A stretch of 64,000 nucleotides of DNA. Source: Octopus vulgaris (taxonomy: Eukaryota). Positions 55,648-63,249 of the stretch are shown piece by piece. The translations under genes were made by a program, and so were the position numbers. The stretch is taken from positions 47,244,001 to 47,308,000 of the forward strand of contig OX597833.1 of NCBI GenBank assembly GCA_951406725.2, read 5' to 3'. Under the pieces are notes generated by a model. That model saw nothing but the letters and a program-made list of their open reading frames with translations. It had not been told where the DNA came from and did not search any database. Within the stretch, counting starts at the first letter, position 1; each line of letters begins with the position of its first letter.

Positions 55648-57471
55648 TAGGTAGATAGATGTAAATATGTGTGTGTGTATATATATATATATAGAGAGAG
55701 AAATGTGTGTGTATGTATGTATGTATAGATATAAATATGTGTGTGTACATATAGGTAGATATAAATGTGTGTGTGCATATATATATATATATATACATAT
55801 ACACACACACGCACACATACATTCATACATACATACACTAGCAATGCATCCTGGCGTTGCCTGGGTATTATGTCCCACAGCCACATTGTATTATTTCTTC
55901 CTTTCTTATGGCCAGAATCAGCACAGCGTAATAGAAGTAATTGCTTGTTTGAAAGTGAAGGTGGGGTGGGTACAAGTTGCATGGGTTTGCATGAAAGTGC
56001 TTTCTGTTCTTAAGAAGGATCACAAACTATGTATTGTTTCATTGTATAAAACGGGGTTAATACGATTTTGCCCAGAAATCACATTTTCAAAATTTTTATT
56101 TCCCACTGTCTCCACTGCAATTTCTTAAATTGTAACTTTTTTTCAAATTTTTTTCTTTTTATCCACAGAAAAATACAGAGATTACGAGTGGGATTTTTTT
56201 TTCTTTTTTTTTTCCAAGTTTAATTTTTCTTAAAGAAACATTCAATAATCCCCACCCATCACCTACCTGCTTTCAAAAAGCTTAAACTTCCCACTGTTTC
56301 ACTTTTGCGTAGAATTGTATTGAAATAGTAGATGTAAAAAAAAACCACATCACCACCAGAAAACCTGACATGCTAGAAACAACAGGTAAACAACATTGTT
56401 TCTGAAGAAACTTCCCCACTTTCCAAAAAGCTAAAAGTGAAACATTGGGAATTTGTAGCTTTTTGAAAGTAGTGAGGCAGTATAGGTGGATGTTTGGGAA
56501 GGAGGTTTTTTGGGCGAAATCTTAATTTCCTGCATCGAAAACATAGGAATTGGAAGAAATTTAAGGAAAAAAAATAAGGAAGGGGTGCAAATGTCATCTC
56601 AGACATGCTAGAAATAACGGGTAAAGGACAGGATTTCTGGCAAAACTTCCTTTAAGTTTATATTGAAGATCAGGTTTTAAAATATGCTCCATCACAAACA
56701 CAAATTACAGAATAGAAAAAGGTCTTTTCAATTCGATTTGAGCTGTAATTTTGTGCATGCACACAGCGAGAAATAACAAAGTTTATACAGTTTTACCTAG
56801 TGTGTGTGTGTGTGTGTGCCAAAGGAAATTATTTTATGGCATTCTTTTGTTTAAAGCAGCAAAATTGTCAACTCAGTCATATGGTTGATCATATGGGATC
56901 ATATGATTATTCATTAATTTCCATAAATGTTTTTGTATTTCTTTATGCTTTGAAGACAGAAGAAATTGAAAGAGGGGAAAAAGTAAAAAGGCAACATTTG
57001 CGTTGAAGTGAGAGCAGAAAGTGAAAAATGTATGCACGTGCATGCGTGGGAGAGTGAATGAAGGTGTGTGTTGTCATGTATGTGTAAGTGATACTCAATT
57101 GCTCACTCTCTCTCTCTATCACACACACACACACACATCTTTCATATACACTTACATAAATACACGCATACATCATTTTTGTATGGATGTGTACATGTGC
57201 TTGTGAGAGAGAGAGTGACTGACTGTATTTCCTCAGAGAAATGGATGTCTTTTAATGAGTGACTAATTCAGATAAGCATTACTTTCATTATTCATACATC
57301 ATCACTCTCATAATGCAAGTTGAGAGTGGAGAGGTTGGTATTAAAAAGGGCATCCGGCTGCCAGATCAGATTGGTGTCTGCTGCAGCCGCCTGGCTTCCC
57401 AGACCCCAGTTGAACTGTCCAACCCATGCCAGCATGAAAAACGGATGTTAAAGGAGGAGGAGGAGAATGAT

Positions 57472-57640
57472 AGTTAAAATTTATAGAAAGCCAAAAGACA
57501 AAGACAGGTGTATGAATAACAAGCAAGTGTATAAGTTTGACGCTTGGGGAAAATGAATAAGTCTTTTACGTTTCAAGCCTATGCTCTTCAACAGAAAGGA
57601 ATAAGAGAAAATAAAAGAGAGAGAGAAGGAAAAAAAACTT
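57472..57640 (-). mobile_element. Penelope-like terminal-repeat fragment, copy of 35815-35990
   Basis: Minus strand CTTT-CTGTTGA-A-GAGC-ATAG-GCTT-GAAA-CG-TA-AAAG at 57562-57599. Confidence 0.65.
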
Positions 57641-57829
57641 ATAGATTTCAGCAGTCCAACATGTGTGTGTGTGTATATAACTATATATGTATGTATATAC
57701 TGTTTTAGCTCATTTGTTCTTTGTTTAATTTTCCCTGAGAGAATATTTAGTAGAATGTACGTAACCCACTTTCTTATGTGATGCAGCAGCAATTAGTTCA
57801 CGATAGCAGTAGGTTTAAATTCACTTATC

Positions 57830-57860
<31 letters not shown>

Positions 57861-57974
57861 GGTGGCGGCAGCGGCTGTGTGTGTGTGTGTGTGACCCATT
57901 TAGTTCTCCAAGGAGGCATGTGTTAGATGGGTTTTCTGAAGCAGCCCTTCATGGATGGTATACCATAATGTAAA

Positions 57975-58005
<31 letters not shown>

Positions 58006-58114
58006 CACACATGCATGCATACACCCATACACAATAAATATAGACAGTAGTTTGCAGTGTGACTGGGGTGTTAGCAGTGTAGGTGTTTATAACACCCTAG
58101 TCACATTTAGTGAC

Positions 58115-58161
<47 letters not shown>

Positions 58162-58601
58162 CAAGATGGGGGGGAAAATGTGAAAACAAACCTACACCAG
58201 TTCTCAAGTGTTGATGGAGGACAAACAACACTACACACGTACAATGGGCTTCTTTTAGTTTCCATCTACCAAATCCACTCATAAGGCTTTGGTTGACCTA
58301 TGCTATAATAGGAGACACTTATCCAAGGTGTCATGCAGTGGGATTATAAAAATATAATAGGATTTTTATAACATTGATTTGTTAGAAGGGGCTATCCGAG
58401 TAAAAAAGGAACCAAACAGTTCCATGAGTAAAAAGTGATTGAGAAACACTGCTGTAAATTTTTCTTTTTATATTCTTATTTCTTTTACATAATTTTGCTG
58501 AATGCTAATATCTGGTCATTACAAAATATTTATTATAAAGTTTACAAAATAACATATTTCATGTATTAAGGTTTGATTTTATTTTCAGTCAAGATTTAAA
58601 C

Positions 58602-59078
58602 TTAGAAATATTGAATTTCTAAATGTCTCAGAGAGACATAAGCGGTGGTGGAGCGATATAGTGGTTGTATACTGTCAACGCAACGTGACAGTCCCGTAAG
58701 GGAATTACACCACCACCATTTAGCCCTAGGAAACATAGACGTTTCCTGTCGGCTTTGACACATTTTCTGTGTCCGTATATTTGCAAAGGGGAGGCAATCA
58801 CCCCCACCAGCTGGGACTAGCACCTGAAGACATATGTTTCTGAGTGTATTGCTCGTCATCAGTCCAGGGTAATCAGTCTCGCTCGCTGAGATGACTGCAA
58901 CCTCTCTGCAAATATATCCTATTTTCATTAAATTTTATTTACTGATCACCAAAATTAGAAATATTGAATTTCTAAATGTCTCAGAGAGACATGAGCGGTG
59001 GTGGAGCGATATAGTGATTGTATACTGTCAACTCAATGTGACAGTCCCATAAGGGAATTACACCACCACCATTTAGCC
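58602..59078 (-). mobile_element. Retrozyme-like non-autonomous retroelement: 353-nt unit plus 125-nt terminal redundancy
   Basis: Direct repeats at 58602-58726 and 58955-59079; TSD CAAGATTTAAAC at 58590-58601 and 59079-59090; internal hammerhead. Confidence 0.85.
58815..58878 (-). ncRNA. Type I hammerhead ribozyme
   Basis: Minus strand GACUGAUUAC-CCUGGA-CUGAUGA-CGAGCAAUACACUCA-GAAA-CAUAUG-UC^-UUCAGG-UGCUAGUC; intact core and GUC cleavage triplet. Confidence 0.85.
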
Positions 59079-59111
59079 CAAGATTTAAACGGTAAATGTA
59101 AATCTGCTTAA

Positions 59112-60216
59112 CCCTGTAGCATTTAGACCAACCATATCTGGCTAAAATATTCTACATGTTCTATGTTCGAATCAGCAATATTTGGCCTCTCATACCTACC
59201 CTACAATGTTATTCTAAAAATAAACAATCACATCATCAAATTCTAGAGGGAACTAAGTAATGCATGATTAATTTAAAATAATGTGTGTAGGCTTGAAAGA
59301 AATGAAGCTAGTATGCTTCACTGGGTTTGCAATGACACTGTGCGTGTATAACAGTGTAAGCATCTTGAGAGAAAAGTTGGGGATAAGAGGCACCAGATGC
59401 AGTGTGCAAGTGAGACAACCTCATTGGTGTGGCCATGTGATACCTGTGTGGTAAGTATCTTGCTTACCAACCACATGGTTCCGGGTTCAGTCCCACTGCG
59501 TGGCACCTTGGGCAAGTGTCTTCTATAGCCTCAGGCCAACCAAAGCCTTGTGAGCGGATTTGGTAGACGGAAACTGAAAGAAGCCTGTCATATGTATGTA
59601 TATGTATGTCTGTGTTTGTCCCTCTCAACATCGCTTGACAACCGATGCTGGTGTGTTTACGTCCCTGTAATTTAGTGGTTCAGCAAAAGAGACCGATAGA
59701 ATAAGTACTAGGCTTAGAAAGAATAAGTCCTGGGGTCGATTTCCTTGACTAAAGGTGGTGCTCCAGCATGACTGAAACAAGTAAAATAATATGGACAAGG
59801 ACAGCAGTGTAAAGAAGTGTTGATCTCTAACTGTGGAGGGGTAAGCCTAGGAAGACATGGGACGAGGTGGTGAAGCATGATCAAGATCTTTGGTGATATG
59901 CTGTACTTGAGAAGACCTGTCAGGCCAAGTGAAATCATAGTCACAGCCAATGCTGGTGTCACGTAACTAGCACCCATACCAGTGGCATGTAAAAAGTATC
60001 TATTACTTTCTTGGAGTGGTTGGCATTACGAAGGGCAATCAGCTGTGGAAACCATGCCAAATCAGATTGGAACTTTGTGTAACTCTCCAGCTTACCAGTT
60101 TCAGTCAAACCATCTAACCCATACCAGCATGGAAAGCAGATGTTAAATGATGGTGATGACAATGAAAGTGAGTAAATAGGCATTACATTTGACAGAGTAA
60201 TCTGAATGCTAAAGAG
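59112..60216. mobile_element. TTAA-type MITE split by a nested SINE B (59446-59785) and an RTE end (59800-60160)
   Basis: Left end TTAA|CCCTGTAGCATT and right end AATGCTAAAGAG|CTAA; the body is the reverse complement of 15611-15820. Confidence 0.65.
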
Positions 60217-60410
60217 CTAAACTTCTTTATAAATCTTTGGCTTTTGGTTTTATCATCATCATCACTTAATGTCCGTTTTCCATGCTGGCATGGGGTTGGC
60301 TGGTTCGACTGAAAACTGGTAAGCCAGGGAGCTGCACTAGGCTCCGATCTGATTTGGCAAGATTTCTACAGCTAGTTGTCCTTCCTAACGCCAACCCCTC
60401 TAAGAGTGTT

Positions 60411-60731
60411 GTCAAAATCTCTCGTGGAAGCATCATCCAACCAAAATGCAAATATATGGGAAACTACCACTTGTGTCATCTCTTGTGAAGGGTTGGAGAG
60501 TCCAGTTTGCTGGACATTGTTGTAGAGCTGAAAACGAGGCAATTTCTACTCTTCTCCTCTGGAAGCCATCTGCTCACAATACCAGAGGGCGCACACTCTC
60601 CTACCCTAATGTAATCTCCAGGGATACAGGCTTCCAGCAACAGGATCTCCGTAATGCTATGATGGACCGTGAAGTCTGGCGTAGCATGGTAAATTCCATT
60701 GTCTCAACCACGGTCGAACAATGATGATGAT
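60411..60731 (+). mobile_element. RTE/RTE-X-like LINE 3' end, a different family with almost no 3' UTR
   Basis: QNLSWKHHPTKMQIYGKLP...FAGHCCR...LLLWKP...AMMDREVWR...* followed directly by (ATG)n; candidate TSD TGTTGT. Confidence 0.85.
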
Positions 60732-63249
60732 GTTGTATTTGTATGTGCCATTGACCTGACATCGACCACAACTATGGTGTCACTGCCTCCATGAGACTCA
60801 GTGCTCGAAGGGTACTTTTTATGTGCCAGTTGGCACTGGCATTGGCCACGACTATGATTTATCCCTCTCTCTCTCTTTCGGAGAGGCACTGAGCAGCTAT
60901 ACGCACACATACACACACGGCAGTAACTTCCACCTACCGAATTCAATCACAAAGCTCCGGTGGGACTGAACCCGAAACCATGTAGCTAGGAAGCAAGCTC
61001 CCTAACCACACAGCCATGCCCGCGTGTAAAATAAGAAACCAGCTAATCAACCATAATTTTTGTGTGTTCATTTTTAACATATGTTCAAGCAAACTGTTCT
61101 TTTTCACTCAGAATATTTTGAACACCTTTTAAATTTTAAATATTCTATTTAAAATTCATCCCAATGTAGATAACTTCAACAAATGAAAGAGAAGTAAAAT
61201 TTCTTGACATGTATTAGTTGTGGTAGGTCAGGTGTGTGTGCACGTGTGTACATGCACAGTTTCCATTGATGAAATCTTAGGTTTAGTCACAGAACAATGG
61301 ACCATTGGAAACTATTGATATCTTTGTATATTACTAATAATATACGTGTGGCCTGAGTCATTCACTCGATAGGACATGCTAATACTAGTTCAGCTTCACA
61401 TTTAAAATTTACTTTTGTATGCTAGGAAAATATGAAAACATTTTTCTTTTATTCTTGGTGGTGGGTGATGGGTGTGTTGCTATTTTGTACTTTAAACTTC
61501 AGTAACTAAAATTAGAATAATAATAAATTGCAAGACAAAAAGAAAAATTGAATACAGCAAAAATTGTTACTATTTTACAACTATGCATATCATCATCATC
61601 CTAATCATATGCCCATGTTCTGTACTGGCATGGGTTGGACAATTTGACAGCATCCAATGGGTCCAAGGACTGCGTTGTGCTCCAGTTCATTGTGTGTATG
61701 CATGCACACGTATAATATTTATATACATGATAGGCTTCCATACATTTTCTGTCTTCCAAAATCCACTCAGGAGGCTTTGACCTTTGACCAGCCTAGGGTT
61801 GTCGTAGAAGACACCCAACCTGCTATGTGGTTGTAAGGCAAACTTCTCAACCACACAACCTCAGTAGCACCTATGTATAAAAATGACGGGGTGATCTTCA
61901 GCTAAATGCTGCAACAACTACAGTCTGTATGGGATGTGCTGGTGAAGTGCTGGGTTGAAATATGTAGGGGGTGTTGATAAACTACAGTTTTGTGTAACTT
62001 ATGTTTATCCATCATCTGCAAATGAGTATGGCCTGGTTGTTTGTACCATGCTTTCACGAGTGGTTTGTTGGTGCCTTGAAGTTGCTAACAGATAATGATG
62101 CCGTCTTGGCCATTATACTCTTGACCTTGACCTGACAGAGTACTGAGGATGTGTCAGCAGGAGAAGAGATAGTTGTGCACCAACAGTCACCTGGTATTCT
62201 TTTTCAGTTTAGTAGACTGGAATAGTGTGAAGTGAAGTGCCTTGCTCAAGAACACAATGTGCTACTCAGTTCTAGAATTGAACCAATGACCTCGCACCTG
62301 GCAGCCTAACACCTTTAACTACTAGACTATGTTCTTTCATTTATGCCTATAGTTAGTCGCCATTACCCTGTAAGGAGCATAAGGCCAGTTTCCTGATTTA
62401 TCTTGCATATACATTTCCTCCCTGGATGAGAAGCTGGTCCATTGCAGGAATATTCATTTTTACCAGCTGAGTGGACTGGAGCAATGTAAAATTACGTGTT
62501 TTGTTAAGAAAACAATGCATCACCTGACCCAGGAATCAAATCCGCAATCTTACTATCATGAGCCCAACACCCTAACCATTAAGCCAGGTGCCTCCACAAT
62601 TGGCATCTATGCCTATAGGGGAATAAAATTATGATGAATGTTGGCTTCTTAATTATCTGATCCTGAAAAGGGGCTTCTGTTCATATTTGATATCAGGAAT
62701 TAAAACCTGAAATCTACAGCAGAAAATAATCTTTTAAATGAGCTGTTTATTGATTGTGACCTTGAAGGATGTATAAATGCACGATGATAACCTTGCTTTG
62801 TGTGTTGCTAAAGATATATGATAATTTAGTACTTACGCCTCACTCATCGTTACATATCATTACCTCTATTTGGTCTGTTTGACTTTTTGGCACCAGTCCA
62901 AACCATACATGTTTGATAGTTTATATTGTTTTCCTTTTCTTTTTAATATATACAACTAGCAATGGTATTTAGACATTCTGATAGCTCTATCTCATATTTA
63001 GTTTGAGGGAGGCTATTTAGAAAACTTAGTTTTAGACACAAATATCAGACTGATATTTCTGTCTGAAACAAAGAATTTTCTAAATAACTTGTCCTCGTAC
63101 TAAATACTTATGCTATTATTATCATTGATTAACAGACTGAAGTGACAATAAGTAGAATGATTAACAAAATGCTAAACAGTATTTAGTTACATTACTTAAA
63201 TTCTGAGTTCAGTTCCTAGTGAGGTCAGTGTAACTTTTCATTCTTGAGA

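Follow-up and report, generated by a model that had tools for sequence, protein, structure and literature searches.

What put a 477-bp stretch of tandem DNA carrying a hammerhead motif into an octopus chromosome, and which machinery copies its relatives? The insertion lies in a 64,000-nucleotide stretch of the Octopus vulgaris assembly (GCA_951406725.2, contig OX597833.1, positions 47,244,001 to 47,308,000 of the forward strand), hereafter called the window. An initial annotation made from the letters of the window had proposed that a 12-bp target site duplication (TSD) brackets an insert that repeats directly at a period of 353. Both statements stand: CAAGATTTAAAC is present in two exact copies, and the repeats between them are 95% identical (Table 1). 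Animal retrozymes are abundant, and their mobilization by Penelope-like elements (PLEs) has so far been proposed from co-occurrence and homology. At base resolution, the insertion ends trace out the Penelope footprint, and they identify which RNA sites to test.

The octopus element is, by the features read from its sequence, a metazoan non-LTR retrozyme, a class that is already known; its cleavage and its circle are here predictions only. Such retrozymes measure 350-390 bp in mussel and 331/353 nt in axolotl (Cervera and de la Pena 2020, PMC7229834). With those described there, the octopus unit shares its short and non-coding nature, a G+C content below 45%, a type I hammerhead, a short palindromic stem III, and a TSD of more than 4 bp. 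Its length and composition fit the short, low-G+C retrozyme unit (150-450 bp), it has no tRNA head, and its fold has a z of -7.4 relative to shuffles. A 108-aa frame in the window unit is private, since a long frame occurs in only 1 of 30 copies, and a coding role is therefore rejected. The main text of PMC7229834 makes no mention of two fixed 3' ends, two-armed inversions, octopus, or cephalopods. A search of the open-licence literature returned no cephalopod retrozyme family, and the family may already be catalogued as an unclassified repeat.

Table 1. Features of the retrozyme insertion, in window positions; minus-strand features are read downwards.
Feature	Position	Strand	Remark
TSD, copy at the element's 3' end	58590..58601	.	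exact 12-nt repeat
TSD, copy at the element's 5' end	59079..59090	.	exact 12-nt repeat
Whole insertion	58602..59078	-	5'-truncated partial unit (unit positions ~230-353), then one full 353-nt unit
Full 353-nt retrozyme unit	58602..58954	-	position 1 = 58954, counted downwards; 43% G+C, non-coding
Partial upstream unit, pseudo-LTR-like	58955..59078	-	5' truncation point variable
54-nt "tail" between the family's two fixed 3' ends	58602..58655	-	unit 300-353
Second fixed 3' end of the family (unit 299)	58656..58656	-	putative second RT start site; end counts and PMC11167929
Type I hammerhead, all parts	58815..58878	-
Hammerhead core	58862-58856	-
Stem II	58855-58841	-
GAAA	58840-58837	-
Palindromic stem III	58837-58830	-
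C17	58829	-	predicted cut after 58829, unit 126
Proximal stem I	58868-58863 with 58828-58823	-
Distal stem I	58878-58874 with 58819-58815	-
ATCAGT	58941..58946	-	candidate snRNA-type promoter element; seen 57-61 nt upstream of the genome's U2 genes
Stem I 5' arm around the predicted transcription start (58892-58887)	58860..58892	-	empty in the window copy; LINE landing site in other copies and sister families

The window copy ends at unit 353. Between its two repeats there are 5 differences in 122 sites, one of them at a bimodal subfamily (diagnostic) site, and the copy carries one ribozyme, so that no circle could be released from it by double cleavage. An empty site was sought among sequencing contigs: none spans the insertion, and in two runs with different organism labels a contig enters it by 28-29 nt from the left. 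A very abundant short repeat (window 59143-59270), with the highest contig depth, lies beside the insertion, and two inverted SINE-like copies occupy 58232-58343 and 59491-59600.

The hammerhead motif is confirmed. The minus-strand core, the GAAA, the palindromic stem III, and the GUC cut site all lie where they had been placed at first, and the hammerhead pattern has a single match in the window and none in 100 shuffles. The base pairs described for stem I and its distal extension are present, and 87-98% of family copies keep them (65% at pair 80/137). The latter pair covaries, with T-A in 43 copies vs A-T in 33, and variation at three further pairs of stem I preserves pairing (A-U/G-U). What did not survive is the explanation of the two stem II mismatches as CpG decay. 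Both A's are the family state (A at position 110 in 59/60 full units and at position 114 in 58/60), and the family alignment likewise rejects the GCUCG arm as the family state. The base of stem II is C-A in 77 family copies and U-A in 43, with G-C, A-U, and G-C above it. Of 33 related hammerheads from sister families, 15 also have this C-A base, and the axolotl HHR_Amex2 is also mismatched at the stem II base (PMC7229834). Across the same 33, pairing of stem I is found in 135 of 165 cells, vs a mean of 108 and a maximum of 129 in 2000 shuffles, a result that is no probability because the rows are kin, and the 3-8 pair is C-G in 23, U-G in 4, C-A in 3, and U-A in 3. Judging from the covariation and from pairing above that of shuffles, the ribozyme stems are under selection, and the core and three stems, together with their conservation and covariation, identify the motif as a canonical type I hammerhead with predicted cleavage. 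Rfam gave no hammerhead match at E<=1 in window 56000-62000. In silico, the minimum-energy structure of the isolated 76-nt motif differs from the catalytic shape (z -0.2), as expected if the ribozyme needs a partner; hammerheads with a short palindromic stem III are reported to be active as dimers (PMC4209133). Two loci (L065 and L087) have lost the ribozyme core or stem II by deletion and end a few bases past the cut site (~unit 131-133).

How large is the family, and how is it arranged? A search of the octopus genome (2.8 Gb) with the unit gave 2965 first-look candidates, and shorter queries yielded 540 (ribozyme part) and 2252-2486 (3' parts), numbers that are not copy numbers; the 40 candidates that were scored are 89-100% identical to the unit. 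The exact core pattern occurs at 130 places (reversed control, 0), and 86 of the 100 core matches listed belong to this family. Left out before counting were four loci with hammerheads of other families, L052, and two of the three segmental duplicates L006/L009/L016. Family copies lie at a median of 2.8% from the consensus at non-polymorphic sites (97 pieces). They mostly are dispersed and span about 0.3-2.1 units, whereas the retrozymes of PMC7229834 form arrays. Partial tandems are common, with 43 of 80 copies crossing the unit junction; another unit follows an intact core in only 2 of 85 cases, among cores from the matches listed, and none of 131 distinct loci holds a long array. Similarly built retrozyme families, at least six more of them and with the core variants CCGAUGA and UUGAUAA, were noted in the genome (L135:6212-6765 oriented, L144, L217, L218, L124, L134, and L226-L316). 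Fixation of A-to-I edits in the copies was considered and rejected, since there is no strand bias (A>G 144/13020 vs T>C 143/12585 at non-polymorphic sites, 25 polymorphic sites excluded).

The ends of these copies carry most of our argument. Since the first query favored copies ending at 353, copies for the census of ends were chosen solely by the core pattern (100 matches listed, 86 family-type cores, of which 85 were used). Of 83 terminal units, 44 end at unit 295-300, 26 at 343-353, and 13 elsewhere, which makes 70 of 83 canonical; over the 131 distinct loci, 83 ends fall at 295-300, 69 at 343 or beyond, and 27 elsewhere. Free permutation would be expected to place less than one-tenth of the ends in these 17 positions. 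The anticipated circularly permuted copies with free start points are thus not what the genome holds: 3' ends are fixed at two sites and only 5' ends vary, spreading over the unit with no wall at the predicted transcription start or at the cleavage site. An LTR element, a TRIM, or a plant LTR retrozyme, taken to have two fixed ends, a 4-6-bp TSD, and (in the plant form) a type III hammerhead, is rejected by the spread of 5' ends, the 12-nt TSD, and the type I motif. The earlier equation of fixed ends with LTR elements or TRIMs is inapplicable here: a single end is fixed, and tailed inversions are characteristic of PLEs (bioRxiv 2021.04.23.441226).

Two-armed inversions make up 48 of the 131 distinct loci. 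Where both ends are canonical, 29 of 31 have one end of each kind, and one insertion each has two ends alike of either kind (p ~2e-7); 17 further inverted insertions have a non-canonical end. The arms overlap by 1-14 nt at 27 of 45 joints. TSDs of 11-17 nt flank 12 of 28 non-microsatellite copies with canonical ends, and 10 have none; a TSD of at least 9 nt is found in these 12 of 28 vs 7 of 560 controls, in agreement with the dispersed, TSD-bearing family that had been predicted. Moreover, (TA)n adjoins 91 of 152 canonical ends. The fixed 3' ends with an optional tail, the 5' truncation, the partial tandems, and the inverted 5' copy in which only one end bears the tail (29/31) form the insertion pattern of PLEs. 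PLE insertions have been described with an inverted 5' copy and a tail on one end, and PLEs devoid of any hammerhead also form partial tandems (bioRxiv 2021.04.23.441226). A PLE protein studied in vitro cuts AT-rich DNA on both strands and extends each of them; the tail is set by the two internal sites from which it starts (PMC11167929). Hence, the Penelope-type mobilization that the initial annotation had suggested is backed by the insertion anatomy, with its two fixed 3' ends and mixed-end inversions.

We therefore regard the window copy as a 5'-truncated, 1.35-unit retrozyme copy, probably inserted at a staggered cut when a Penelope-type reverse transcriptase (RT) initiated inside the RNA. 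The enzyme, very probably a PLE RT-endonuclease, would bind the RNA, make a staggered cut of ~12 nt in AT-rich DNA, and prime at 299 and/or 353, with each of the two cut DNA strands priming at one of the two sites. A direct copy such as that in the window would result if one primer prevails; two cDNAs that meet could be joined by short homology into an inversion. The octopus retrozyme and the Penelope/Poseidon element PAc of Anolis (Frangieh et al. 2024, PMC11167929) have in common AT-rich targets and two internal starts downstream of the hammerhead that define a tail. PAc extends both strands, and the octopus anatomy points to an enzyme that does likewise. They differ in that the octopus unit encodes nothing and has a tail of 54 nt, vs 30-40 in PAc, and in the strict pairing of opposite sites in two-armed insertions, of which we found no description for PAc in the available part of that report. 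Nor did we find, in the open-licence literature, such a two-site rule in retrozymes. The rule of one site of each kind is a genomic prediction of how a PLE enzyme engages both strands of its cut.

These ends raise a further question: is the template a circle or a linear RNA? We propose that the rare two-unit loci, such as C1:71811767 and C2:17095835, would be transcribed from a U2-type promoter in the upstream unit (see below). The RNA may be copied uncut, as a linear molecule, giving copies whose repeats differ. Alternatively, it could cleave itself twice, probably as a dimer, and be ligated into a 353-nt circle, a step to which we give slightly better than an even chance of occurring. If one circle were the template, the repeats within an insertion would start out identical. 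They disagree in 13 of 73 comparisons (12 bimodal non-CpG sites), in 9 of 35 insertions, with 37 disagreements expected for random pairs and ~4 from later mutation. As 13/73 exceeds the 5.7% background (p 2e-4), not every insertion came from one monomer circle. A single template type thus accounts for most insertions but not for a quarter of them. This discordance could have been raised by hypermutable sites or gene conversion, and the numbers are small.

Could there be no circle at all, with only uncut linear transcripts of tandem loci as templates and the ribozyme as a passenger or acting at another step? The heterologous repeats would fit, as would L062, which begins at position 65, the predicted start site, and whose two units differ, the structure expected of a linear dimer transcript. 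Hammerhead-free PLEs make the same partial tandems (bioRxiv 2021.04.23.441226), and cleavage is dispensable in vitro, where uncut RNA is the main template of the PLE (PMC11167929). A linear dimer transcript, however, should be unable to regenerate a promoter-bearing dimer, and long arrays are absent from the 131 loci. The two longest copies (L086/L184 and L003/L189) extend 335 and 384 nt past the last unit on its upstream side, beyond the reach of a linear dimer transcript, and their units match at 10/10 and 10/12 sites. A circle step would explain copies longer than such a transcript allows, and selection on the stems also speaks against an idle ribozyme. We consider the absence of a circle unlikely, though it deserves to be taken seriously, and a 353-nt RNA circle plausible. 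Circles have been proven for mussel, coral, and axolotl retrozymes, and the mussel ones are similar in size to the octopus unit (PMC7229834). Because a second unit follows the core in only 2 of 85 cases, circle-making loci would be rare. None of the sequencing runs found to contain the element is recorded as RNA, and contigs from four presumed-RNA runs have the same 3'-biased profile as those from four other runs.

The opposite extreme, in which every copy, that in the window included, is a cDNA run around one 353-nt circle from a free start, is very improbable. It would account for the 43 copies that cross the junction, for the few that pass two ribozyme sites, and for repeats that are more alike within an insertion than random pairs, and the circles proven in other animals lend it precedent (PMC7229834). 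Against it, start points are not free, and the 9 insertions with repeats that differ at subfamily sites include the window copy. Furthermore, the two arms of L222 are unlike, one with an intact unit and one with a unit broken by a LINE, which requires two different templates or a linear dimer. The strict rolling-circle form is refuted; a circle with fixed starts is part of the best explanation.

If a PLE enzyme writes these copies, which PLE provides it? Dependence of retrozymes on PLEs was already proposed in PMC7229834. More recently, retrozymes were presented as non-autonomous PLE derivatives on the basis of co-occurrence and of homology with the PLE terminal repeat (pLTR) in 35 species, none of them molluscs (Li, Clavereau, Pollet 2026, bioRxiv 10.64898/2026.07.22.740005). 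Our analysis points to the same class of partner from insertion anatomy, with no homologous pLTR found. By the two-ribozyme rule of that study, the window copy is not "active". Young PLEs with open 781-aa RT and GIY-YIG frames are present in the genome; they have two 3' ends, located at (TA)n, and by eye their terminal repeat shows a minimal U3-A8 hammerhead-like motif. Animal PLEs are known to carry minimal hammerheads (PMC4209133). We compared the unit by BLASTN and by an HMM of the unit with 50 PLE stretches (30 + 20, mostly one family, of 6136 candidate places) and found in them no pLTR resembling it; the matches were to distinct, older retrozyme relatives close by. None of the family copies is adjoined by a PLE protein match belonging to the element; among 16 loci with other hammerheads, one (L223) has such a match, not tied to this unit. 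A very young two-ORF PLE family with a ~500-bp pLTR and a ~35-nt tail (G000:C2, C3, C4, C5, C6, C7, C16, and C17; L126-L133 and others) is a ready candidate for target-primed reverse transcription in vitro.

It could be argued that the unit is itself the detached pLTR of a full-length PLE and that the copies are truncated PLE insertions. The end anatomy is the same as that of PLEs, and frog retrozymes are related to pLTRs (10.64898/2026.07.22.740005). Yet copies extended upstream run into another unit and not into an ORF, the searches just described found neither an adjoining PLE protein match nor a similar pLTR, and the hammerhead is canonical here, as opposed to minimal in animal PLEs (PMC4209133). 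This makes a detached pLTR highly improbable.

A second kind of mobile element marks the same unit. Three loci break off at unit 92-95 into one common foreign sequence, a 1.63-kb element that has a CCHC ORF1, lacks ORF2, and ends in AATAAA. A search with its 3' end gave 290 candidates. Of the 30 loci retrieved, 26 run on into a retrozyme of this or a sister family, at the 5' arm of stem I, and 4 do not; on-target rows often share ancestors, so 26/30 is not a count of independent events. Both ORF1-only and complete L1/Tx1-type LINEs land at this arm. Their target duplications measure 14-22 nt in 32 of 41 cases (a few of them parsing errors), different elements stack at one site, and insertion mostly leaves a complete hammerhead downstream by way of the TSD. 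In 19 of 496 pairs, LINE ends at least 90% alike sit in host retrozymes only 55-69% alike (host cutoff, <=75% identical), which needs repeated targeting. Clustering of host labels on the LINE tree (9 changes, shuffled mean 13.5) indicates that hitchhiking also occurs; this tree includes four rows of truncated pieces, with long branches, that lower mean identities. Three LINE-retrozyme composites (L122, L222, and L224) have 299/353 ends, and L122 and L222 share a junction, as a composite re-copied whole would. That one old insertion spread by hitchhiking accounts for the association is extremely improbable: it agrees with the composites that were re-copied whole and with the clustered labels, but not with differing junctions and TSDs, stacks of different elements at one site, near-identical LINEs in such dissimilar hosts, and off-target copies with their own TSDs. 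LINEs landing at one position of very different retrozymes provide a natural experiment on target choice.

What might these LINEs recognize? In 18 of 20 U2 loci, A[T/C][C/T]AGT lies 57-61 nt before +1, and a LINE occupies that place in the other two. The unit has ATCAGT at 9-14, which puts the predicted +1 at ~63-68, a spacing of 54-59 nt that touches the short edge of the U2 range. One class of LINE junctions falls at this predicted +1, and a second falls ~10-14 nt later. One complete LINE family occurs both at +1 of U2 genes and in a sister retrozyme, with 94-96% identity over 3.7-5.5 kb, and the copy in the sister retrozyme lies 60 nt after ATCAGT. These results suggest a U2-type promoter in the unit, as judged by a 6-mer and by LINE behavior. 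A U6-type promoter was rejected: none of 25 U6 loci, of which many are probably pseudogenes, has ATCAGT at that distance. In two loci (L403 and L404; G000:C3:20810000-20819500 and C23:43308000-43317400), a complete LINE sits at the first bases of a U2 snRNA gene, with ~20 nt around +1 duplicated. On C1, a divergent U6 variant (L415-L420 and L430) is clustered in tandem; it has TATA at -30 and an octamer-like motif near -78.

A promoter in the unit would give a role to the partial tandems: run-on into the preceding unit would restore the promoter region upstream of a new copy, as the pLTR does, and ORF1-only LINEs could borrow this promoter and ride the Penelope route too. Together, three layers can be pictured: a retrozyme circle driven by a U2 promoter, a Penelope RT dimer that copies the circle from two fixed sites into both strands of one cut, and LINEs that read the position of the promoter and are carried along. 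We offer this combined reading tentatively, as somewhat short of probable. Within it, a radiation of Tx1-type and ORF1-only LINEs would recognize where the promoter lies instead of a sequence, and insert at the start site, just ahead of the hammerhead. The two mapped starts make RT identity and circle use in animal retrozymes directly testable in vitro.

The passengers themselves resemble known elements. At 1.5-1.8 kb, with TSDs, a CCHC knuckle, and no ORF2, they have the characteristics of HAL-type ORF1-only LINEs; a homologue of their protein is named from Octopus bimaculoides, which agrees with a cephalopod host, and more distant relatives sit in other targets. Their ORF1 matches (34% identity, E 1e-21) the ORF1 of a young complete LINE located in (TATC)n, a putative partner assigned to the Tx1 clade by its two-ORF layout, zf-RVT, and target habit rather than by an RT tree. 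Target-specific LINEs of this clade include Tx1 in Tx1D, Keno in U2, and Tx1-Mar and SINEU-3 in Mariner-N4 (PMC4494074), and Tx1 elements that target other transposable elements are known, as is HAL1 (PMC4494074, PMC4640811, PMC5753468). As in these precedents, the octopus passengers insert into another repeat, form serial stacks separated by TSDs, exist in an ORF1-only form, and have sisters at U2 genes and microsatellites (PMC4494074, PMC5753468). They differ in having as targets hammerhead retrozymes of families 55-69% alike and in composites re-copied with Penelope-type ends; the open-licence literature that we searched yielded no LINEs targeting hammerhead retrozymes. Elsewhere in the genome, a highly active complete L1/Tx1-type LINE with a 1152-aa ORF2 (L349-L354; e.g., G000:C2:30463000-30472500) gave 16596 first-look candidates, and (TATC)n follows its 3' end in nearly all loci in which that end was found. 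Finally, head-to-tail stacks of at least five near-identical 1.8-kb ORF1-only elements with open frames occur in non-retrozyme targets (L299-L309 and L313-L315; examples at G000:C4:70041500-70054000 and C4:27054000-27069000), and a second ORF1-only family follows some of them.
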